IMG/VR virus record: IMGVR_UViG_2713896773_000003
Span: 1-20,639 of that record
DNA: 20,639 nt
Direction: 5' to 3' (one strand)
Source: a virus
Lineage: Duplodnaviria; Heunggongvirae; Uroviricota; Caudoviricetes
The notes under the pieces: model-generated
What the model was told of the DNA's origin: nothing
Databases searched by the model: none
The model's input: the letters and a program-made list of their open reading frames with translations, nothing else
Translations under genes and position numbers: made by a program
In this document: positions 2,475 to 19,202 of the stretch, one piece after another
How the letters are laid out: each line of letters begins with the position of its first letter
How positions within the stretch are numbered: position 1 is the first letter of the stretch

Positions 2475-3114
2475 ACCATCCCGCCGTAAGTGCAAAGTAT
2501 GCGGTGAATACTTCGTGCCGAAATTCCACGACATCCGGATCCGCTGGTGCTGCCCGGAACACGGCGCAATCCTCGCAATGGAAGAGCGTGAAAAGGAGAA
2601 GGTGAAAGCCGAGGCTAAGCGCATCAGGGAGCAGAAGGAAGCCGAGAAGGAAGGGCGCAAGCGCCGTAAGGCCAAGCGCGAGTCACTCAAGTCAAAATCT
2701 CAGTGGGATAAAGAGGCTCAATCGGCCTTTAACCGCTACATCCGGATCCGCGATGAAGGTAAGCCATGTGTCAGTTGCGGCAATCCACTCATCGGCAAAA
2801 GCAATTACCTGACTGGCAGCGCCATTGACGCCAGCCATTACCGTTCACGTGGCGCTGCCTCACACCTCAAATTCAACGTGTTTAACGTCCACTCCGCTTG
2901 CACCCGCTGTAACCGGCAGTTGAGCGGTAATGCTGTCGAGTACCGGATCCGCCTGATTCATCGCATTGGCCTTAAGCGCGTAGAGCGGCTCGAAGCTGAC
3001 AATGCCCCACGCCGGTTTGACGTTACCTACCTGAAGCGCGTGAAAGCAATTTTTTCCCGCAGGGCCAATGCACTGATGAAGCGCCGTCAAAAACTACAGG
3101 AGAGTGCAGCATGA
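2467..3114 (+). CDS. ninG: NinG/Rap-like recombination protein (Holliday-junction and branched-DNA endonuclease family)
   Basis: GAGGAGG (2454-2460) 6 nt before ATG. Cysteine and histidine motifs CKVCGEYF, WCCPEHG, CVSCG, DASHYRSRG and CTRCNRQLSGNAVEYRIRLI follow the lambda NinG/Rap pattern as I recall it. Lysine and glutamate-rich basic linker in the middle. Confidence 0.85.
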   Translation: MCKPSRRKCKVCGEYFVPKFHDIRIRWCCPEHGAILAMEEREKEKVKAEAKRIREQKEAEKEGRKRRKAKRESLKSKSQWDKEAQSAFNRYIRIRDEGKPCVSCGNPLIGKSNYLTGSAIDASHYRSRGAASHLKFNVFNVHSACTRCNRQLSGNAVEYRIRLIHRIGLKRVERLEADNAPRRFDVTYLKRVKAIFSRRANALMKRRQKLQESAA

Positions 3115-3752
3115 AATGCAAAGTTGAAGGTTGTGAGCGTGAATGCAAACACTACCCAGGAAAGGGTATCTGTCAAATGCACTACTTCCGAATGATGCGC
3201 TACGGGACCTACGAACTCACAAAAAATGGTAAAGGGAAATTCAGGCATAAAAATGCGAAGGGATATCAAATGCTCAAAATTCCTGATCATCCACTATCAA
3301 TGGCGAATGGCTGCGTTTATGAGCACCGAAAAGTTGTTTACGACCGCTATGGAGAAACACTTCCACCATGCGAAAAATGCGGCAAGAAGGTCACATGGAA
3401 AACCGCGCATATTGATCACATTGATGAGGTTGTTGATAACAATGCGGACTCAAATCTTAGGGTGCTTTGCCGAGCGTGTAATGTCATGCGATCTCGAGTG
3501 CATATCCCTGAGCACACAAAAAAAGGACGCACAGCCATAACTTTCAATGGCGAAACGAAAACCGCCACAGAATGGTCAAGGGACCATCGCGTTTCAGTAT
3601 CAGAAACATCCATCAAGCGTCGACTAAAAAATGGAATGAATGTAGAGGATGCGCTTTTTTCTCCCAAAGTAACCCACAGGCATACCAGGCCAAGAGGAAG
3701 AACACCTCTGTATGGTGAATATCGCGGACCAAAGCAGAAGGAGTCAGCATGA
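3111..3752 (+). CDS. HNH homing-type endonuclease with an N-terminal Cys/His cluster and a C-terminal DNA-binding-like region
   Basis: ATG overlaps the ninG stop (ATGA). Cys/His cluster CERECKHY...CQMHY. HNH core EHRKVVYDRYGETLPPCEKCGKKVTWKTAHIDHIDEVVDNNADSNLRVLCRACN (His, Asn, His with flanking CxxC pairs). Codon and base composition are visibly more AT-rich than the flanking nin genes. Confidence 0.8.
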   Translation: MKCKVEGCERECKHYPGKGICQMHYFRMMRYGTYELTKNGKGKFRHKNAKGYQMLKIPDHPLSMANGCVYEHRKVVYDRYGETLPPCEKCGKKVTWKTAHIDHIDEVVDNNADSNLRVLCRACNVMRSRVHIPEHTKKGRTAITFNGETKTATEWSRDHRVSVSETSIKRRLKNGMNVEDALFSPKVTHRHTRPRGRTPLYGEYRGPKQKESA

Positions 3753-3865
3753 ACCACACCGACTTCCTCCGGTACCAGGCCGAAAGCGTTAAGCGCGCCT
3801 ACCTGCCGCCAGTAGCAAAGCACAGCCAGACCAAAACCCACCAGCCACAGAAGGAAGCCGCATAA
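3749..3865 (+). CDS. Possible very small ORF (38 aa) coupled between the HNH gene and the Q-like gene
   Basis: ATG 3749 overlaps the HNH stop (ATGA); its stop TAA 3863-3865 overlaps ATG 3865 of the next gene (TAATG). No motif recognised. The overlaps suggest translational coupling, but such a short ORF could be chance. Confidence 0.3.
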   Translation: MNHTDFLRYQAESVKRAYLPPVAKHSQTKTHQPQKEAA

Positions 3866-7056: not shown

Positions 7057-7695
7057 ATGGTGAACGAAGACGAGCGCAGGCCACTTCCACCAGTTAATTT
7101 CATTGGCCCTGATAACTGGCAGCCCTACACCAGATTGATTCCCGCCAATGAAGTGCATGACTGGATAAGCCATCAAATCCTCAGCGATAGCGGAAGCATC
7201 CATAACCCAGACCACGCCCATTTAATGGAAGCTGATTTGTGTTTTATGTGGGCTTCTGACTCATTCGCGAAGAAAGGGCGCTACGTTCTCGGACAGGCCG
7301 AACAGGTAATGCTCCGCGCAGGTGGTTGGCAGAAAGCCAGAATGGAACAGCAGATGTATGAATGGTTCGGGCGCATCCCGAAGTTCATCATCACGCTGGC
7401 AGCCGACTACTGCTCACAATGCAGCGACCTTGAATTCTGCGCCCTGGTAGAGCATGAGCTTTACCACATTGCCCAGGCCACCGATGATTTCGGCGCACCT
7501 AAGTTCAACAAAGAGACCGGGCAGCCAGTTCTCACATTGCGCGGCCACGACGTCGAAGAATTTGTCGGTGTTGTGCGTAGATACGGGGCGAGCACTGAAG
7601 TGCAAGAACTGGTGGACGCAGCCAATCAACCTGCAGAGGTGGCAAAACTTAACATCGCCAGAGCGTGCGGGACGTGCATGCTGAGACTGGCGTGA
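7057..7695 (+). CDS. Putative phage metallopeptidase-domain protein (HExxH motif HELYH, SprT-like or phage metallopeptidase-like)
   Basis: CAGGA RBS 7 nt upstream; coupled to the previous gene. Motif CALVEHELYHIAQATDDFG with Glu about 20 residues after, plus cysteine pairs CSQCSDLEFC and CGTC. Family identity is from memory. Confidence 0.6.
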   Translation: MVNEDERRPLPPVNFIGPDNWQPYTRLIPANEVHDWISHQILSDSGSIHNPDHAHLMEADLCFMWASDSFAKKGRYVLGQAEQVMLRAGGWQKARMEQQMYEWFGRIPKFIITLAADYCSQCSDLEFCALVEHELYHIAQATDDFGAPKFNKETGQPVLTLRGHDVEEFVGVVRRYGASTEVQELVDAANQPAEVAKLNIARACGTCMLRLA

Positions 7696-7726: not shown

Positions 7727-8215
7727 ATGGCTGCATTAAAGGGAGAGGTGAAAGCGTTTATCGTTCAATCGCTTGCATGCTTCGACACGCCGTCGCAAGT
7801 GGTCGATGCCGTCAAAAAAGAATTTGGCATCACGATCCCCCGTCAGCAGGTTGAATCTCACGACCCGACGAAAGCAAACGGCAAAGGTCTGGCGAAAAAA
7901 TGGGTCGAGATGTTCAACGAAACCCGCGAGCGCTTCCAGACGGAAATTGCAGAAATCCCGATCGCTAATAAGGCTTATCGGCTTCGCGTACTGCAACGAA
8001 TGTCTGTGACCGCAGAGAACATGAAAAACCTCGGCATGACAGCTCAGCTTCTCGAACAGGCAGCAAAAGAAGTTGGGGATGTCTACACCAACAAACAGAA
8101 GGTTGAGCAAAGCGTTGTTGCCACCCATAACGTTATGCCGGTCCCGTCCTGCGATAACGTCGACGACTGGGAAGCAGCAGCACAGAAACAGCAGAGCGAG
8201 GTTCTTGGTGGATGA
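7727..8215 (+). CDS. Putative terminase small subunit
   Basis: A 162-aa gene immediately upstream of, and overlapping (ATGA), the terminase large subunit. The N-terminus MAALKGEVKAFIVQSLACFDTPSQVV resembles small-subunit proteins of enterobacterial phages as I recall them. Assignment is mainly positional. Confidence 0.65.
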   Translation: MAALKGEVKAFIVQSLACFDTPSQVVDAVKKEFGITIPRQQVESHDPTKANGKGLAKKWVEMFNETRERFQTEIAEIPIANKAYRLRVLQRMSVTAENMKNLGMTAQLLEQAAKEVGDVYTNKQKVEQSVVATHNVMPVPSCDNVDDWEAAAQKQQSEVLGG

Positions 8216-9783
8216 ATTACAAAGCCGTCTGGAAACCTTTGCCGGGATCGCAATCGCTCTCCCTGAGTTGCCCGTGTAACGAAATCCTCTACGAAGGTAC
8301 GCGAGGCCCCGGTAAAACCGCCGCGCAACTGGCGCGCTTTCGTCGCCTGGTTGGTCTGGGCTATGGCTCGTTCTGGCGTGGCGTCATTTTCGATACCGAG
8401 TATAAGAACCTCACCGATATCATTACCCAGTCAAAGCGCATGTATCGCCTGTTTAACGACGGCGCACGCTATCTGGCGTCAGCATCTGAACTGCGCTGGG
8501 TGTGGCCGACTGGAGAGGAGCTGCTGTTCCGCTTCGGGAAAGAAGAGGGTGACTACTGGGACTATCACGGCCAGGAGTTTCCGTTCATCGGCTTTAACGA
8601 GCTGACCAAGCAGCAGTCCCCTGAATTCTACGAGATGATGTTCTCTTGCCGGCGCTCCTCGTTCCGGCCTGAGAATTACCCGCTGGGTGACGGTTCGTTA
8701 CTTAAGCCTATTCCCCTGGAGACGTTCAGCACCACTAACCCGTTTGGCATCGGCCACACCTGGGTGAAGAAACGCTTCATCGAGCCAGCGCCCCGCGGCA
8801 CCATCATTCGTGAAACGCAGCAGGTGTTTAACCCGCAAACTGAGCGCGAAGAGGATGTGACGCTGACGCGCGTGGCTATTCACGGCTCGTTCAAAGAGAA
8901 CCCGTATCTGGATCCCCAGTACATCGCAACGCTGATGGCCATCAAAGACCCGAACCGCCGCAAAGCTTGGGTAGAGGGCTCCTGGGATGTCACCAGCGGT
9001 GGGCGCTTTGACCACCTGTGGAATGCATCGCTGCACGTCATTAAGCCGTTCCGCATCCCGGATAGCTGGACGGTTGACCGTTCCCATGACTGGGGTGAGT
9101 CGAAGCCGTTCTCTAACCTCTGGTGGGCGCGAGCCGACGGTACTGCCGCAGAACTGCCTGATGGTCGCCAGTTCTGCCCGCCTGCCGGGTCGCTGATCCT
9201 GATTGGCGAGTGGTATGGCTGTCCACCTGACGAGCTGAACAAAGGGCTCAATATGAGCTCGACAAACGTCGCCAAGGGTGTGGCCTGGATTGATAAGCGG
9301 CTGATGGGCGAAGAGCTGCCTGAACCTGAAGAGATAAAACTCAATGGGATAACTCAGGGGCAACTGAACATCATGCCCGGTATCTGCAAAAAGGTTGTGC
9401 CGGGCCCAGCTGACGGTGCCATCTACAACACTGGCGATGACGAGCTCTCTATTGCCCAGAAGATGGAATCGCAGGGCGTTAAGTGGGTTCCATCCAACAA
9501 GAAACCGGGATCGCGCGTAAACGGAGCGGCCCTCTTTGCTGACATGCTGGAGGCCGTCCTTGAGGGTAAGAAGCTGGAATCTGGTGTACCTGAGAAACCA
9601 GCATTCTACGTCTTCGACTATTGCCGCGGCTGGATAAGCCGTGTTCCGGTGCTCGTTCGCGACAGTAAGAACCCTGATGACGTAGACACTCAGCAGGAAG
9701 ATCACGACTGGGATGGCACTAGATATGCCGTCCTGCATTCACCGCCGAAGAAAGTCGGCAAAGTCACCAACCTACGGATCTAA
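8212..9783 (+). CDS. Terminase large subunit (ATPase plus nuclease)
   Basis: Walker A-like YEGTRGPGKT near the N-terminus, 523 aa, directly upstream of the portal gene. The first about 25 residues (SQSLSLSCPC) are low-complexity, so the true start could be an internal non-ATG codon. The 346-aa antisense ORF 8698..9738 is rejected. Confidence 0.9.
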   Translation: MNYKAVWKPLPGSQSLSLSCPCNEILYEGTRGPGKTAAQLARFRRLVGLGYGSFWRGVIFDTEYKNLTDIITQSKRMYRLFNDGARYLASASELRWVWPTGEELLFRFGKEEGDYWDYHGQEFPFIGFNELTKQQSPEFYEMMFSCRRSSFRPENYPLGDGSLLKPIPLETFSTTNPFGIGHTWVKKRFIEPAPRGTIIRETQQVFNPQTEREEDVTLTRVAIHGSFKENPYLDPQYIATLMAIKDPNRRKAWVEGSWDVTSGGRFDHLWNASLHVIKPFRIPDSWTVDRSHDWGESKPFSNLWWARADGTAAELPDGRQFCPPAGSLILIGEWYGCPPDELNKGLNMSSTNVAKGVAWIDKRLMGEELPEPEEIKLNGITQGQLNIMPGICKKVVPGPADGAIYNTGDDELSIAQKMESQGVKWVPSNKKPGSRVNGAALFADMLEAVLEGKKLESGVPEKPAFYVFDYCRGWISRVPVLVRDSKNPDDVDTQQEDHDWDGTRYAVLHSPPKKVGKVTNLRI

Positions 9784-9787
9784 TCCC

Positions 9788-11191
9788 ATGCCTGATATTT
9801 CAACCCCAAATCTGGACTATGGGAACATGGTCGAGGCGTGGGATATCAACGATGCCCTGATGGGCGGCACGCTCTATATGCGACAGCTGGGCGAGCAATA
9901 TCTACCGCGCTGGCCGAAAGAAGACAAAGAGGACTACAAAAAACGCCTCGCCGTGGCCACGCTTCTGCCAGCCTACGAAGAGACCATTAAGCAAAACATC
10001 GGGCGTGTATTCGCCGAGCCCATTAAGCTTGCCGAGAATGTGCCTGATGAGCTGCGAGAGTATGCGAAAAACTTCGACCTTGAGGGGACGCGCCTGGACG
10101 TATGGGCGCAGGCATTCTTCGGTCTGGCGATGCAGTATGGACTCTCCCACGCGCTGGTGGATTATCCCAGGGTGGACACCGAAAAGGTGAAAACCAAAGC
10201 GGAAGAGAAAGCTACTGGCGCGCGCCCATACGTCACCATGCTCAATCCCCGGCAGGTGATCGGATGGAAGTCGAAAATGGTAGACGGCAAAGTGGTGCTG
10301 ACCGAGCTGCGTATCAAAGAGGTAGTTATCGAGGACGGCGACGACTTCGGGCAGACAAAGGTCGAGCAAATTCGTTATCTGACACCTGGAATGGTGCAAA
10401 TCTACCGCAAGTCGAAAGGTATCGATGGGGCGGCGAACTGGGAGAAGTTCGACGAATGGACAACATCTCGTAAGGACATAACACTGGTGACGCTCTACAC
10501 CAAGCGCACCGGGTTTATGTGTGGTTCACCTCCACTGCTCAATATGGCTCTGCTGAACATCAAGCACTGGCAGAGTCAAAGCGAGCAGGACAACATCCTG
10601 CATGTCGCCAGGGTGCCGTTGCTCACGGTGTTCGGTTTGGAAGAGGGGCAAGAGCTGATAATTGGCTCGTCTTCAGCTACGTCGTTCACTGATCGGCAAA
10701 AGCAGGGTCTGGAGTACGTCGAGCATACAGGCTCCTCCATCGGTGCTGGTAAAGAGTCGCTGGCAGAACTTGTGGAGCAGATGCGCCAGGCTGGTGCGAA
10801 GCTGCTTCGTACGGAAAACACCTCTACCAAATCGGTAGACCAGACCTCTGAAGAGAAAATGCAGGAGCAGTCACCGCTCTACACCATGGCTACCAGCCTT
10901 GAAGATGCGATCGACAACATTCTGCAAATCATGGCCGAGTACATCGGCGAGAAAGATGGTGGCAACGTTGATGTTCGCACTGAGCTGGATGTCGAATCGA
11001 CCGTATTCAATCCGTCCGCCGCGCTTGCCATCCAGGCACTGCGCCAGGGTGGTGATATCCGTCGAGCTGATGCGATTAAATCGCTACAGAAGTTGAACAT
11101 TATTGATGCCGATGCGGATCCTGATGTGGTTCTGAGCGAACTGCTGGCTGAGTCCGCATCGCTGAGTGACCCGCCGCCGGACGAGGTGTGA
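9788..11191 (+). CDS. Portal protein
   Basis: Track ORF 9713..11191. ATG 9788 lies 5 nt after the terminase stop and is preferred over 9713, which would overlap the terminase by about 70 nt. The 467-aa size and position between terminase and head morphogenesis gene are typical of a portal. Confidence 0.8.
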   Translation: MPDISTPNLDYGNMVEAWDINDALMGGTLYMRQLGEQYLPRWPKEDKEDYKKRLAVATLLPAYEETIKQNIGRVFAEPIKLAENVPDELREYAKNFDLEGTRLDVWAQAFFGLAMQYGLSHALVDYPRVDTEKVKTKAEEKATGARPYVTMLNPRQVIGWKSKMVDGKVVLTELRIKEVVIEDGDDFGQTKVEQIRYLTPGMVQIYRKSKGIDGAANWEKFDEWTTSRKDITLVTLYTKRTGFMCGSPPLLNMALLNIKHWQSQSEQDNILHVARVPLLTVFGLEEGQELIIGSSSATSFTDRQKQGLEYVEHTGSSIGAGKESLAELVEQMRQAGAKLLRTENTSTKSVDQTSEEKMQEQSPLYTMATSLEDAIDNILQIMAEYIGEKDGGNVDVRTELDVESTVFNPSAALAIQALRQGGDIRRADAIKSLQKLNIIDADADPDVVLSELLAESASLSDPPPDEV

Positions 11192-11192
11192 T

Positions 11193-12296
11193 ATGGCCCG
11201 CTCAGTTAACGACCGCCTGCAGGACGAAACGATAGCGCACGGCCTGTATGTAAACCGCTACGGTACTGGCGTCGCTCGTCGGATGGTGGCGCTGCTCAGC
11301 AAGATGGATGCTGACCTGGCTGCCAAACTGCTGGTGCTGCTGGATGGTAAGCGTGCCGATACCTACAGCGCTCGCCGCCTGGCTTCGCTGCTGGCTGGTG
11401 TGCGCGACCTGAATCAACAGGCCTATGAACCGGTGAATGCTGCGCTGGCACGTGAACTGACGCGCTACGTTGAATATGAGGTCGGTTATCAGTTTGACCT
11501 TTTTATCAGCATCATTCCGAAGCAGATCCTCAGGCATGTACCGCTCCAGAGCATCGCGCCTGAGCAGGTTTACGCCTCAGCAGTGACTCAGCCATTCCAG
11601 GGGCGCTTGCTGAAGGAGTGGGGCCAGAAGCTTGAAACGGATCGGCTGGATAAAATCACCAACGCTGTGCGCACCGGTTTCCTTCAGGGTGAAACGGTAG
11701 ATCAGATCGTTAAACGCGTTGCCGGAACGCCGAAACTCAATCGTGAAGATGGGGTGATTAACGCCTCCCGTCGCGACCTGGCGGTGGTGGCCCGCACGGC
11801 TGTAAATCACATGGCCGCTACTGCGCGTCAGGAGTTCGCACAGGGCAACAGCGATATCGTAAAGGCCAAACAGTGGTCCTCAACGCTGGACACTCATACC
11901 AGCCAGTGGTGCATTATCCGCGACCGAAAGCTTTACACGCTCGACGGCAAGCCGCTGGGGCATGAAATTCCGTATCTGCGCGGACCCGGCAAAATCCACT
12001 TTTGCTGCCGCTCCGGTGAAATCCTGATTACCAAATCGTGGGAAGAGATGCAGATAGCCTCTGGCGAACTGAGCAGCGCCACACGCGCTTCGATGGATGG
12101 ACAGGTGCCATCGCATACCAGCTATGCCGAATGGCTCGTCAGGCAACCGTACGCACGGCAGGAGCAGGTGCTGGGCGTTACTCGCGCGCGGATGCTGCGT
12201 GACGGCAAAATCACCGTGCCGGAGATGTTCAACGATGCCGGGGAGTTCCTGACCCTGGACGAACTGCGCCGCGTGGATGCATCGGCTTTTGAATAA
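11193..12296 (+). CDS. Head morphogenesis protein (phage Mu F-like or SPP1 gp7-like minor head protein)
   Basis: Track ORF 11166..12296. ATG 11193 has GAGGTG upstream and starts 2 nt after the portal stop. Position directly after the portal and the about 370-aa size fit the MuF-like family. Confidence 0.7.
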   Translation: MARSVNDRLQDETIAHGLYVNRYGTGVARRMVALLSKMDADLAAKLLVLLDGKRADTYSARRLASLLAGVRDLNQQAYEPVNAALARELTRYVEYEVGYQFDLFISIIPKQILRHVPLQSIAPEQVYASAVTQPFQGRLLKEWGQKLETDRLDKITNAVRTGFLQGETVDQIVKRVAGTPKLNREDGVINASRRDLAVVARTAVNHMAATARQEFAQGNSDIVKAKQWSSTLDTHTSQWCIIRDRKLYTLDGKPLGHEIPYLRGPGKIHFCCRSGEILITKSWEEMQIASGELSSATRASMDGQVPSHTSYAEWLVRQPYARQEQVLGVTRARMLRDGKITVPEMFNDAGEFLTLDELRRVDASAFE

Positions 12297-12316
12297 CTGA
12301 ATAAGGTAATAAAACA

Positions 12317-12781
12317 ATGACTCAACATATTGGCGTGAAGCTCATCAATGCTTACCCGATGACCCGTCTGGCATATAACGACTTTCGTGGTTGGGAGTTA
12401 CCAAGTGACGAAAACGGAAGTGATGAAGGTTATCTCGTCGAGTATCTGGATGGCGGAAAGCCAAACACCGATCGCTTCAACGGGTATGTGAGCTGGAGTC
12501 CGAAAGATGTGTTCGACAAAGCCTACCGACCAGTGGCGGGGCTTAGCTTCGGACTGGCTGTCGAAGCCCTGAAATCAGGCAAGCGTGTCACCCGCGCAGG
12601 CTGGAACGGCAAGGGCCTGTGGCTTGAGCTGGTCCAGCAGTCGCCATCTGTGGACCTGCCGTACATTCGTTTAATTTATCCTGTGCCGGGCAATGGTGCT
12701 ATGCCATACCCAAATGGCGCTCGCGTGCCTTGGGCACCAAGCCAAACCGACGTCTTGGCTGATGACTGGCAAATTCTCTAA
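12317..12781 (+). CDS. Two-domain accessory protein; C-terminal half DUF2829-like (the family of Thoeris anti-defence Tad2), N-terminal half a possible degenerate duplicate
   Basis: C-terminal motifs LAVEALKSGKRVTRAGWNGKGLWLEL and VPWAPSQTDVLADDWQIL match my recollection of the DUF2829 signature. N-terminal segment GYVSWSPKDVFDKAY echoes the C-terminal W-P-x-D-V-L-x-x-D-W element. Sits between head morphogenesis and scaffold genes, a classic moron site. Confidence 0.6.
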   Translation: MTQHIGVKLINAYPMTRLAYNDFRGWELPSDENGSDEGYLVEYLDGGKPNTDRFNGYVSWSPKDVFDKAYRPVAGLSFGLAVEALKSGKRVTRAGWNGKGLWLELVQQSPSVDLPYIRLIYPVPGNGAMPYPNGARVPWAPSQTDVLADDWQIL

Positions 12782-12804
12782 ACCAGTTGCTTGGGGGGTG
12801 GTCT

Positions 12805-13014
12805 ATGCGAGATGACGATTTTCACCATGTGGGCGATGGCCGCGGTAAGCGCCGAGTGTTCGTTAACGGCAACGAGGTCAAGCGCTGCGTATGGGCGGAT
12901 GTTAAGCGAGGAATAGCATGCTTCTACCCATACCCCATTCGGGTCCATAAGCGAAAGCGCGATGAAGTCTATACCCGCAAACTGCGCGGCGTAATAACCG
13001 TCGAATTTATCTAA
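12805..13014 (+). CDS. Hypothetical small basic protein (69 aa)
   Basis: Track ORF 12787..13014. ATG 12805 is preceded by a G-rich stretch (GGGGGGTGG). No motif recognised. Followed immediately by a terminator hairpin. Confidence 0.5.
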   Translation: MRDDDFHHVGDGRGKRRVFVNGNEVKRCVWADVKRGIACFYPYPIRVHKRKRDEVYTRKLRGVITVEFI

Positions 13015-13015
13015 C

Positions 13016-13041
13016 AGGCTGCCTTCGGGTGGCCTTTTTTA
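13016..13041 (+). terminator. Rho-independent terminator closing the accessory pair
   Basis: Stem AGGCTGCC (13016-13023) / GGTGGCCT (13028-13035): 8 bp including two G-U pairs, UUCG tetraloop, T-run 13035-13040. Confidence 0.6.
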
Positions 13042-13121
13042 TGCCTGCCGCTGAGCGGATGCGACGCGGTGACCGGGTCGGATGACCTATTACCAATGGC
13101 CGGAAGGCTGGAGCAAAAACA

Positions 13122-13874
13122 ATGAAACTGAAACTTGATGCTAACGGAAATGTGGTCGTTGAAAACGGTATGCCTGTGTACATCCATGATGATGGCAAAG
13201 AAATCCCGTTCGACGCAGCCGCAGCGATGACCAAAATCACCTCCCTGAATGGTGAAGCTAAAACTCACCGTGAAGCGAAGGAGGCGGCGGAAGCCAGTCT
13301 CGCGAAATTCTCTGGCATCACCGATCCGACCAAGGCGCTCGAAGCCCTGGAGATGATGACCAAAATCGACCAGAAAAAACTGATCGACGCTGGCGCTGTT
13401 GACCAGGTTAAGGCTGAGATTACCAAGGTATTCCAGCAGCAGCTGGATGAAGCGAACGGCAAGACCAAACAGCTCGAAAGCCAGCTCTACGACGAGATGA
13501 TCGGCGGGCGCTTCGGTGGCTCCAAATTCATTTCAGAGAAGATGGCGATCCCGGCTGAGTTCGTGCGTTCCCACTTCGGTCAGAACTTCAAAATCGAAGA
13601 CGGCAAAGTCGTGGCGTACGACGGGCAGGGCAACAAGGTGTTCTCTCGCACCAAGCCAGGCGAGTTAGCCAGCTTTGATGAGGCCCTGGAGTCTCTGGTC
13701 GAGTCGCATCCGCAGAAAGATTACATCCTCAAAGCGTCCGGTAACAGCGGCGGCGGTTCTCACCAGTCGCAGCACCAGGCCGGGCAAAAAACCATGAAAC
13801 GCGATGCGTTTGATTCCCTGGATAACGCTGGCAAGCAAGCAGCGCTGAAAGACGGCGTCAGCATCGTCGATTAA
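13122..13874 (+). CDS. Putative scaffolding protein
   Basis: A 250-aa acidic, alpha-helical-looking protein (runs of A, E, K, Q) directly upstream of the major capsid gene; GGAG about 9 nt upstream of the ATG. Confidence 0.6.
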   Translation: MKLKLDANGNVVVENGMPVYIHDDGKEIPFDAAAAMTKITSLNGEAKTHREAKEAAEASLAKFSGITDPTKALEALEMMTKIDQKKLIDAGAVDQVKAEITKVFQQQLDEANGKTKQLESQLYDEMIGGRFGGSKFISEKMAIPAEFVRSHFGQNFKIEDGKVVAYDGQGNKVFSRTKPGELASFDEALESLVESHPQKDYILKASGNSGGGSHQSQHQAGQKTMKRDAFDSLDNAGKQAALKDGVSIVD

Positions 13875-13891
13875 ATCGAAAGGAGCCATAA

Positions 13892-15031
13892 ATGGCAGGC
13901 AATACCCTTACTGGTCTGATCCCGACCATCTATACCGCGCTGTACGTAGTGTCCCGCGAGCAAACTGGTTTTATTCCTGCGGTGGCGCGTGACGCGAAAG
14001 CGGATGCTGCTGCAAAAGACCAGACCGTACGTGCGCCAGTCGCACCTGCAGCCACCACTGAAGATATTGTCCCTGGACCTTCAGCGCCTAATTCTGGCGA
14101 CCAGACCATCGGTGGTGTGGATGTCAAAATCACCAAATCCAAAATGGCCCCGGTGAAATGGAATGGTGAAGAGCAATTGGCTCTGGGCCCGGCTGGTACC
14201 TACAACACCATCCTGGCTGACCAGTTCAAGCAGGCTTTCCGTGCGCTGGCGAACGAAGTGGATGCGGATCTCGCTGCGCTGTACCTCAACTCCTCCCGCG
14301 CTGTTGGCGCGCCAAAGAATACCCCGTTCAGCATCAAAGACGATCTGACTGATGCTGCGTTGGCGCGTCAAATCCTGACCGATAACGGTGCGCCGACTAC
14401 TGATTTGCGTATGGTGCTGGGTGGCGAAGCGATGGCATCCATCCGTGGTAAACAGGCTGTACTCTTCAAAGCGAACGAAGCGGGAACCGACCAACTGCTG
14501 CGTGAAGGTGTTATCGGTCGCATCATGGGCTTCAACCTCCACGAATCCTTCAGCATCAAGCGTACCGCGAAAAGCGCTGCTGCTGGCTATAAGGTCAATG
14601 GCGCGAAGAAAGAGGGCGATATCATCATCGCTATCTCTGCTGGCACCGGCGGTATTGCTGCAGGTACTGCGGTGAAGTTCGCCGGTGATGACAATCAGTA
14701 TCTGGTCGTTGCGGCTACGTCTTCCACTATCACTATTAGCGCGCCGGGCCTCCGTCAGGATCTGGCAGACCAGGCTGATGTCACTGTGTTGAGCGAATTT
14801 GTACCGAACATGGCGTTTGACCGCGGGGCATTCCTGCTGGCCAGCCGTACCCCGGCGATGCCTGAAGGTGGCGATACTGCTGATGACGTCATGAATGTGA
14901 CCGACCCGGTATCTGGCATCACCTTCCAGGTGGCGCTGTACCGCCAGTACCGTCAGGTGCGTTATGAAGTGGGCCTGGCATGGGGTGTGGCTGCTGTGGC
15001 GCCACGTCATTCCGCCATCATCATGGGTTAA
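13892..15031 (+). CDS. Major capsid (coat) protein
   Basis: A 379-aa ORF with a strong RBS (AAAGGAG), immediately after the scaffold gene and followed by a terminator hairpin. Composition is typical of coat proteins. The 329-aa antisense ORF 14081..15070 is rejected. Confidence 0.8.
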   Translation: MAGNTLTGLIPTIYTALYVVSREQTGFIPAVARDAKADAAAKDQTVRAPVAPAATTEDIVPGPSAPNSGDQTIGGVDVKITKSKMAPVKWNGEEQLALGPAGTYNTILADQFKQAFRALANEVDADLAALYLNSSRAVGAPKNTPFSIKDDLTDAALARQILTDNGAPTTDLRMVLGGEAMASIRGKQAVLFKANEAGTDQLLREGVIGRIMGFNLHESFSIKRTAKSAAAGYKVNGAKKEGDIIIAISAGTGGIAAGTAVKFAGDDNQYLVVAATSSTITISAPGLRQDLADQADVTVLSEFVPNMAFDRGAFLLASRTPAMPEGGDTADDVMNVTDPVSGITFQVALYRQYRQVRYEVGLAWGVAAVAPRHSAIIMG

Positions 15032-15272: not shown

Positions 15273-15584
15273 GTGAGCGATAAAGATATTGAGCAGGAAA
15301 TTCAGGCCAAAGGCTTGAACGCGCCGCGCGTTACGCTGGGCGAGTTGAAGGCGAATATTAAGCATGCCGAGATCGTGAAGCACGTATCCGTCACCGGGCA
15401 GGTGCTTCGCTGGGCGGTCATCACCACTCAAAACGGATTCGCAGTAACAGGGAATCCGTCGTGCTCAGTTTCCTCCGCTAACGACAACGCTGAAATTGGC
15501 GAGAAAATTGCTATTGAGAACGCCGAAAGCGAGTTGTGGGCGTTGATGGGATATGCGTTAAAGCAGAAGCTTTTCGAAGCCTGA
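15273..15584 (+). CDS. Gp49-like protein (phage N4 gp49 / Sf6 gp66 family, function unknown)
   Basis: GTG start with GGAGGAG (15261-15267) 5 nt upstream. Motif NGFAVTGNPSCSVSSANDNAEIGEKIAIENAESELWALMGYALKQKL fits my recollection of the family signature (G.SAC, NFD.EIG..IA..NA...W.LEGY.L). Confidence 0.55.
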   Translation: MSDKDIEQEIQAKGLNAPRVTLGELKANIKHAEIVKHVSVTGQVLRWAVITTQNGFAVTGNPSCSVSSANDNAEIGEKIAIENAESELWALMGYALKQKLFEA

Positions 15585-18671: not shown

Positions 18672-19202
18672 ATGAATCACCCAACCGTCTCAGTGAATGG
18701 GGTCTCCGTCCGCGTTGATGACGAAGGCCGGTACAGTCTTAACGATCTTCATGCGGCAGCGGTAGCTAACGGAGAGGCTACTGAGTCACAAAGGCCCAGC
18801 GTCTTCCTGCGTAGCGCGCAGATCAAACGCTTCGTTAAAGCGCTAAAATCCAAAGCACTAAAAAGTGCTTCGGAACAAAATCAACCACTTAAGGTTATAA
18901 AAGGCGGTGATCAAAGTGGTGCATGGGGCATTGAACTTCTGGCAATCCGCTATGCCGCCTGGATAAAGCCAGAGTTTGAGATTGAAGTGTACGAAGTATT
19001 TAGAACAGTGGTGCGTCTTGGTATCAGTGCCATGTCCCGCCTGAACAAAATCGACCACATCATCAACACTGAAACCAAGGCAATTAGCCAGTGTGCCAGC
19101 CAAATGGCCAAGTGGGGTGTTGGTGGTCGCAAGCAGCTATTACATGCAGCCCGGGATCGCGTCGCCGACGAAGTCCAGATGTATCTGCCCGGCATTAACT
19201 AA
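18672..19202 (+). CDS. KilA-N domain protein (DNA-binding domain with a C-terminal extension of unknown function)
   Basis: N-terminal region VSVNGVSVRVDDEGRYSLNDLHAA ... AWGIELLAIRYAAWIKPEF matches the KilA-N / APSES-like pattern. Preceded by a 216-bp non-coding region and followed by a hairpin terminator; more AT-rich than the flanking tail genes. Confidence 0.7.
   Translation: MNHPTVSVNGVSVRVDDEGRYSLNDLHAAAVANGEATESQRPSVFLRSAQIKRFVKALKSKALKSASEQNQPLKVIKGGDQSGAWGIELLAIRYAAWIKPEFEIEVYEVFRTVVRLGISAMSRLNKIDHIINTETKAISQCASQMAKWGVGGRKQLLHAARDRVADEVQMYLPGIN

Follow-up and report, generated by a model that had tools for sequence, protein, structure and literature searches.

A two-domain Tad2-family protein encoded in a variable cargo slot of an HK639-like prophage head module

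The DNA analysed here, referred to as the window, is a stretch of 20,639 nucleotides (positions 1 to 20,639 of IMG/VR virus record IMGVR_UViG_2713896773_000003) from the late region of a lambdoid, HK639-like prophage. Between the end of its MuF-like gene (position 12296) and the start of the gene in the scaffold position (position 13122) lies an 825-bp gap, which holds two open reading frames (ORFs) and a terminator: ORF154 (12317-12781, plus strand, 154 aa, taken from the ORF list), ORF69 (12805-13014 from ATG to stop, plus strand, 69 aa, basic) and an intrinsic terminator with a UUCG tetraloop (13016-13035, plus strand, located by a terminator scan). ORF154 joins an N-terminal module to a Tad2-like domain, and we consider it probable that the protein is a Tad2-family sponge for immune signals, in which the N-terminal domain adds an oligomerisation interface and which acts independently of ORF69. 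The first-pass annotation of this DNA had placed two genes between the MuF-like and scaffold genes, and both were indeed located in the gap.

A Tad2 domain forms the C-terminal half of ORF154

The C-terminal half had been attributed to DUF2829/Tad2, with two motifs quoted, and both are present in ORF154, GWNGKG at residues 95-100 and WAPSQTDVLADDW at residues 139-151. The attribution was upheld by the PF11195 profile, by the match to Tad2 sequences of solved structure and by the predicted fold, which all agreed. The PF11195 (DUF2829) match scored 72.4 bits against a gathering cut-off of 25 (E 4.6e−20) and aligned residues 77-154 with profile positions 2-73 of 73, within a domain that spans residues 76-154 (12542-12778, plus strand). 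Among sequences with solved structures, the domain matched SPO1 Tad2 (E 5e−11) and Myroides ModTad2 (E 6.5e−10), and it also matched the SptTad2 and HgmTad2/AcrIIA7 sequences. When the AlphaFold2 (AF2) model of ORF154 (predicted local distance difference test score, pLDDT, 84.5) was compared with the PDB using Foldseek, the 18 best matches were all Tad2 structures, with a probability of 1.0 and target-normalised TM scores of 0.55-0.80, and Tad2 structures were the sole significant matches. Both the AF2 model and the Foldseek matches showed the Tad2 fold, in which a helix at the N-terminus precedes an antiparallel sheet whose loops are helical.

The core residues that contact ligand in characterised members are conserved in ORF154. 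In the structure paper on SPO1 Tad2, the ligand is contacted by W25, N26, W73, S76, T78 and D79, and these residues align with W96, N97, W139, S142, T144 and D145 of ORF154; for HgmTad2, the structure paper gives W21/N22 and S90/T92/D93, which correspond to the same ORF154 positions.

Over its full length ORF154 matched phrog_872 (E 2e−60), and the best 120 of its 4,932 homologues spanned 79-100% of the query, all except one at least 97%. The exact protein is found on at least 1,000 public contigs and is annotated in Escherichia, Enterobacter and Citrobacter as a "DUF2829 domain-containing protein", and gp49 of Escherichia phage N4 shares its layout, so the earlier description of an undescribed domain architecture could not be maintained. 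Proteins that combine this N-terminal domain with Tad2 are common and already carry the DUF2829 label, and ORF154 is an unremarkable representative of a known anti-defence family, with an under-studied accessory domain.

The ORF154 family is also mosaic inside the gene. One 160-aa relative (P0020) is identical to ORF154 over residues 1-100 and then continues into a different, SPO1-like Tad2 core; the same core is present in a protein of locus L038 (L038:3392-3874), which carries about ten substitutions in residues 1-100; and at least seven distinct variable segments follow near-identical N-terminal domains among the ORF154 homologues. This mosaicism suggests recombination that exchanges the pocket-forming part.

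The N-terminal half as a separate, mobile domain

Residues 1-73 (12317-12535, plus strand) are predicted to form a beta-alpha-beta-beta-alpha domain (hereafter N-domain), which reached a pLDDT of 94 when modelled alone. This monomer model contains three strands and an unpaired N-terminal segment (residues 1-9), an arrangement compatible with a swapped strand.

The first-pass annotation had seen in this half a degenerate echo of the Tad2 motifs, and an origin of ORF154 by internal duplication would make the N-terminal half a decayed Tad2 copy. A local resemblance between SWSPKDVFDKAY and WAPSQTDVLADDW does exist, in that each runs from a strand through W-x-P into a helix, but the two halves compared with each other gave a BLASTP E value of 15 and an hhalign profile-profile probability of 0.2%, and the N-domain is fused to partners other than Tad2. 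Profile searches of each half gave the same picture: PF11195 matched the C-terminal half (E 4.6e−20), whereas the N-terminal half had no Pfam match, PF11195 included. Duplication is thus refuted at the sensitivity that BLASTP, hhalign and the non-Tad2 partners provide, and we give it next to no chance of being correct. Judged by its sequence relationships, the N-terminal half is a domain unrelated to Tad2 and mobile in its own right.

An exhaustive search with residues 1-75 returned 1,498 cluster representatives at E ≤ 1e−3, in which the N-domain was N-terminal, internal or C-terminal within proteins of 72-354 aa. Among the best 150 of these 1,498, the partners recognised by Pfam were Tad2 (52 proteins), PF21825 (Sequestin; 36), PF13876 (Acb4; 20) and the Acb2/Tad1 hairpin (1). 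Local re-annotation recovered the architectures Ndom-Tad2, Ndom-Sequestin, Acb4-Ndom-Sequestin, Ndom-Tad2-Sequestin and similar ones, where Ndom denotes the N-domain. Representatives with entirely different partners were still about 60% identical in the N-domain, with K8, R17, Y20, N21, R24, W26, E32 and D36, and further E42, Y43, D45, N50, Y57, S59, W60 and S61, near-invariant. Mean identity was 0.60-0.64 inside partner classes and 0.60-0.62 between them, and the nearest neighbour carried the same partner in 49 of 90 cases, against a fraction of 0.44 expected by chance, from which we conclude that the sequence of the N-domain is independent of its partner domain.

About one third of the closest N-domain proteins (P0133-P0282) contained partner segments of at least 45 aa that matched neither Pfam nor Tad2, Acb4 or Sequestin. 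Clustering of the 53 such segments gave 52 clusters and revealed no family that recurs; a number of the segments resemble frameshift debris, and others may represent partner domains not yet described. Two named candidates for the N-domain itself were judged unlikely by their descriptions only, namely Lockin, which is described as hexameric and as not found in completely sequenced phage genomes, and Acb5, which needs R10, W38 and H61, where the N-domain has no conserved His.

A profile search with the N-domain found no match among PDB sequences. An earlier description of the domain exists, as the N-terminal part of RyR Tad, which is gp68 of Pectobacterium phage vB_PatP_CB1 and a sponge for glycocyclic ADP-ribose (gcADPR) according to a June 2026 preprint (10.64898/2026.06.04.730250). 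In that work the ligand is bound by the C-terminal RyR-like domain, the N-domain forms in the crystal a beta1-swapped dimer with a five-stranded sheet, and the N-domain expressed alone has no anti-type-I-Thoeris activity (10.64898/2026.06.04.730250). The N-domain of ORF154 aligned with residues 1-69 of CB1 gp68 in BLASTP (E 6e−6) and in hhalign (probability 95.7%, E 1e−8, 62 columns), both proteins contain the motifs K-x-x-x-A-x-PMT, EGYLV-Y and SWSP-x-x-VFD, and the N-domain model matched in BFVD an RyR-domain protein of Yersinia phage TG1 (probability 1.0). The CB1 N-domain lacks R17, N21, R24-G25-W26 and the DGGKPN loop, all of which are near-invariant in the ORF154 clade, and its negative activity result may therefore not transfer to ORF154. 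No tested Tad2 protein that contains the N-domain was found in a search of the supplements of published data.

Proposed action of ORF154

We propose that residues 76-154 of ORF154 would assemble, by homology, into a homotetramer like that of SPO1 Tad2, and that its inter-protomer pockets would trap ADP-ribose (ADPR)-derived signals made by Toll/interleukin-1 receptor (TIR) proteins, such as 3'cADPR, with His-ADPR or N7-cADPR also possible. The predicted ligand contacts are W96/N97 and W139/S142/T144/D145, and with the signal trapped, the Thoeris effector would be left unactivated. The N-domain (residues 1-73) would be an autonomous module that phages shuffle between sponge domains, and the homology to the RyR Tad crystal structure suggests that it most likely forms a strand-swapped dimer and thereby provides an extra oligomerisation interface.

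Several observations weigh against this proposal. The base-side contacts of SPO1 Tad2 (I63, T65, D67 and H71) are not conserved in ORF154, where an ungapped register from the conserved Trp gives M129, Y131, N133 and V137, and the adenine-contacting strand reads MPYPNGARV in ORF154 and IKTADNKIH in SPO1. Members of the Tad2 family are functionally diverse and inhibit Thoeris I, II and IV, CBASS and Pycsar. Given the divergent base-side contacts and adenine strand, and the several systems inhibited by the family, an ADPR-type ligand appears likely from the alignment, and which one it would be cannot be named. The segment from GWNGKG to the second Trp is also shorter than that of SPO1 Tad2 and far shorter than that of HgmTad2 (38 residues from the WNG motif to the second Trp in ORF154 versus 63 in HgmTad2), which makes an HgmTad2-type pocket for cyclic dinucleotides unlikely. 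In addition, the predicted template modelling score (pTM) of the ORF154 model, 0.62, means that the arrangement of the two domains is uncertain, and the RyR Tad N-domain was inactive against type I Thoeris on its own, although this comparison is imperfect.

The N-domain could instead be a second ligand-binding module, either another sponge or a small signal-degrading enzyme, such that ORF154 would neutralise two different immune signals from a single chain, in the manner of the Acb4-Tad2 and Acb4-Sequestin fusions. This is a tentative alternative, which we hold to be possible and distinctly less probable than a dimerising role. Its appeal lies in the fusion partners of the N-domain, which represent no fewer than three established sponge families and in some proteins, such as the triple fusion Acb4-Ndom-Sequestin, occur two at a time; the same guilt-by-fusion reasoning uncovered Sequestin, and a Pfam-based fusion screen would miss the N-domain because it has no Pfam family. 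The unusually strong conservation of the domain (about 60%, with near-invariant polar and aromatic residues, independent of partner) and the general design of sponges, which are small homo-oligomers with pockets at protomer interfaces, point the same way, whereas the homologous RyR Tad N-domain alone lacks anti-type-I-Thoeris activity, the N-domain is net acidic by sequence while sponge pockets are positively charged, and it seldom stands alone (2 of the 150 closest relatives). If the two-signal alternative were correct, phages would plug the N-domain beside Tad2, Sequestin and Acb4 to obtain multi-target inhibitors, and the N-domain would mark further unknown sponge partners.

ORF154 and ORF69 are separable cassettes in a hypervariable slot

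A four-way DNA alignment resolved the ORF154 cassette as an indel of about 502 bp (12287-12788, with limits approximate to about ±5 bp), defined against the prophage of Escherichia coli ET729 and HK639; the corresponding alignment columns 59-560 were occupied only in the window and in the prophage of E. coli 21AR0133. The 21AR0133 slot contains ORF154 and ORF69 and nothing else, the ET729 slot contains ORF69 without ORF154 and nothing else, and HK639, with flanks 97% identical, has neither gene and carries a 38-aa hydrophobic ORF and the terminator. Base composition gave no foreign signature, the GC content of the insert being 0.51-0.57 versus 0.54 for the window.

We then surveyed 80 IMG/VR loci whose scaffold protein was at least 95% identical to that of the window, in 74 of which the slot could be scored. 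Slot length ranged from 126 to 945 bp, with at least 10 different contents. The slot was empty in 23 of the 74 loci and held ORF69 alone in 32, ORF154 together with ORF69 in 4 and an ORF154-like gene alone in 1 (L038), with other small-gene cargo in the remaining loci. Together with the DNA alignment, this variation among relatives confirmed that the genes are non-structural passengers of the head module, as had been proposed. These results indicated that the MuF-scaffold gap serves as a hypervariable slot for cargo, closed by a conserved terminator of the backbone and occupied here by two unrelated cassettes.

The other cargo seen in the slot comprised an HNH-like 178-aa ORF (L023:3310-3846), a 226-aa ORF that contains an HEMGHH motif and precedes a 61-aa ORF (L055, L061 and L071, at about 3026-3864), an unrelated 69-aa ORF (L057:3685-3894), an 83-aa ORF (L035:3576-3827) and a 47-aa ORF (L028:3731-3874).

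ORF154 and ORF69 had been grouped as one islet, and a two-gene anti-defence unit whose parts require each other would account for their being adjacent on the same strand and for their joint presence in the window and five relatives (L003, L016, L037, L058 and L092). Since slots with ORF69 alone and a slot with the ORF154-like gene alone both occur, the two are separable cassettes and not a pair. ORF69 stands alone in 32 of the 74 slots, Salmonella and E. coli ET729 prophages included; the ORF154-like gene of L038 has no ORF69; the ORF154 homologues of Klebsiella prophages, N4 and Kapi1 have no ORF69 neighbour; and relatives of ORF69 occur at unrelated late-region positions. The presence/absence data thus largely refute an obligate pair, which we regard as very improbable, and the grouping was abandoned.

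An anti-CRISPR function of the AcrIIA7 type, or an accessory role in head assembly, would also remove ORF154 from the signal sponges. Matches of ORF154 to AcrIIA7/HgmTad2 entries (E 8e−8 and 1e−6), the label "anti-CRISPR protein" on homologues in some phage records and the location of the gene within the head module speak for such roles; on the other side, AcrIIA7 activity could not be reproduced and AcrIIA7 is itself a gcADPR/cGG sponge according to the structure paper, ORF154 is absent from most phages with near-identical head genes and is therefore not needed for assembly, and its homologues also occupy non-structural positions (in N4, in Kapi1 and beside an integrase). We accordingly rate both roles as very unlikely and retain the sponge as the preferred reading.

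ORF69 is an independent small basic accessory cargo gene

A G-rich, Shine-Dalgarno-like run precedes the ATG of ORF69 at 12805. Comparison of diverged copies gave a ratio of nonsynonymous to synonymous substitution rates (dN/dS) of 0.05-0.13, with dS saturating, and their length was constant; this strong purifying selection identifies ORF69 as a real gene, although PGAP left it uncalled in 21AR0133. The first-pass annotation had described a basic protein of no recognisable family, of which the basic character stood (pI 10.1). ORF69 does have a family, phrog_3540 (E 1.6e−33), and a profile search returned about 200 clusters of stand-alone proteins of about 70 aa from Enterobacteriaceae, Pseudomonas, Vibrio and Acinetobacter, all "hypothetical" and none with a Pfam family. 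ORF69 itself had no Pfam or NCBIfam match, and the best hit of a PDB sequence search was non-significant (E 0.15). Its relatives lie downstream of a holin gene and ahead of the terminase genes in L102, among small ORFs 5' of the terminase genes in L097 and L098, and between head-tail connector genes and the tail terminator gene in L099. No link of ORF69 to ORF154 or to defence was found.

The terminator belongs to the phage backbone

The terminator RNA folds as AGGCUGCC-UUCG-GGUGGCCU followed by a T-run, with 8 pairs including 2 G-U and a minimum free energy of −12.8 kcal/mol; the DNA reads AGGCTGCC-TTCG-GGTGGCCT plus the T-run. The same hairpin and downstream flank were present in 81 of 85 related sequences, with empty slots and every other cargo seen included, its paired positions change together (GGTGGCC / GGCAGCT / GGCGGCC), and the HK639 annotation lists it as a terminator. 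Because the hairpin is kept in empty slots, it belongs to the phage backbone and not to the insert, so that the UUCG-loop terminator reported earlier is present at 13016-13035 and is not the cassette's own. A consensus-only scan of 11000-14000 detected no sigma-70-like promoter. The simplest inference from this is an antiterminated late transcript, and ORF154 is presumably expressed from the Q-antiterminated late transcript alongside the structural proteins.

Acb4-family neighbours and genomic context

The window also encodes an Acb4-family protein of 103 aa (15273-15584, plus strand; PF13876, E 6e−15), whose GTG start codon is preceded by the Shine-Dalgarno sequence GGAGGAG. The gene occupies a second variable slot, flanked on one side by the capsid gene and a 66-aa ORF and on the other by a DnaT_2-like adaptor gene; it is absent from HK639 and the 21AR0133 prophage and present in 7 of 68 related loci, and the exact protein occurs on 785 contigs as "Gp49 family protein".

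Homologues of ORF154 recur in other settings. In Klebsiella prophages with unrelated head genes they lie just 5' of the capsid gene, and in several of these prophages an Acb4-family gene follows directly 3' of the ORF154 homologue. In another element an integrase gene is followed by an Acb4-family gene and an ORF154 homologue, and in the P22-like phage Kapi1 the homologue lies between the lysis genes and the small terminase gene. In the N4 RefSeq (L095:2109-2962, record 33632-34485), gp48 is Acb4/PF13876 and gp49 is N-domain plus Tad2; Pfam calls PF13876 "N4 Gp49", and since N4 gene numbering varies by source, the two are easily confused. No experimental report on N4 gp49 was found in the literature searched.

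The late region of the window also encodes the large terminase (8212-9783), the portal protein (9713-11191), the MuF-like protein (11166-12296, PF04233), the scaffold-position protein (13122-13874, DUF6651) and the P22-type major capsid protein (13892-15031). A putative phage metallopeptidase ORF (7057-7695, plus strand; PF18894, E 4e−43) lies just 5' of the small-terminase region. Within the tail-gene region, an ORF with a KilA-N domain (18672-19199, plus strand; PF04383, E 4e−15) has as its positional counterpart in the 21AR0133 prophage a gene annotated "tail tip fiber protein", and this position may be another cargo slot.

Implications

The Tad2 domain of ORF154 is one more member of a well-studied sponge family. 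The N-domain is among the most conserved pieces of these proteins, and its sole tested representative is a divergent copy, assayed against type I Thoeris only; whether it is a dimeriser or a signal binder would alter the reading of multi-domain sponges. With ORF154 in the MuF-scaffold slot and Acb4 in the post-capsid slot, temperate enterobacterial phages appear to keep exchangeable anti-signalling cargo in the late structural operon. Such cargo would be co-expressed with structural proteins, and a role in Thoeris sensing is reported for some of these. The other small genes of the slot, ORF69 included, are reasonable candidates for anti-defence screening.

Comparison with known systems

Lambdoid morons, known from the HK97 and HK022 literature, are accessory genes inserted between late genes, and the classical moron consists of its own promoter, a gene and its own terminator. 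Like a moron, ORF154 is an additional gene flanked by two conserved late genes, is carried by some close relatives and missing from others, and has a terminator downstream. It differs in that no promoter of its own was found by the consensus-only scan and in that the terminator is fixed to the slot and not to the insert.

SPO1 Tad2 (Gp34.65; PDB 8SME/8SMF/8SMG) aligns end to end with the C-terminal 79 residues of ORF154, with a TM score of about 0.8, and the motifs GWNGK and W-x-PSQTDVLA-DW are common to both. SPO1 Tad2 is, however, an 89-aa single-domain protein, whereas ORF154 adds a 73-aa N-terminal domain and its gene belongs to the late head operon of a temperate enterobacterial phage. 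HgmTad2/AcrIIA7 and SptTad2 (PDB 8KBI-8KBM, 8WJD) have the same Tad2 core and gcADPR-site motifs as ORF154, but their long beta2-beta5 insertion makes a second pocket for cGG or cGAMP, and the ORF154 segment is much shorter.

The multi-sponge fusions (Acb4-Tad2 of Pm86, Tad2-Sequestin, and Acb4-Sequestin of YH6/Ab09) likewise join a Tad2-type sponge to a small module, and the N-domain itself occurs inside such fusions, as in Acb4-Ndom-Sequestin. Both parts of those fusion proteins are proven sponges, whereas the N-domain is at most a candidate one. RyR Tad has a homologous N-domain followed by a signal-binding domain, as does ORF154; its C-terminal domain is RyR-repeat-like (PF02026) where that of ORF154 is Tad2, and RyR Tad is dimeric whereas Tad2 is tetrameric.

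N4 gp49 (YP_950527.1, 160 aa) combines the N-domain with Tad2 and is 47% identical to ORF154 over the full length. It differs in location, sitting not in the head module but in an N4-like "anti-signalling hotspot" that extends from the replication genes to the virion RNA polymerase gene, where it adjoins an Acb4-family gene, just as the window that encodes ORF154 also encodes an Acb4-family gene.

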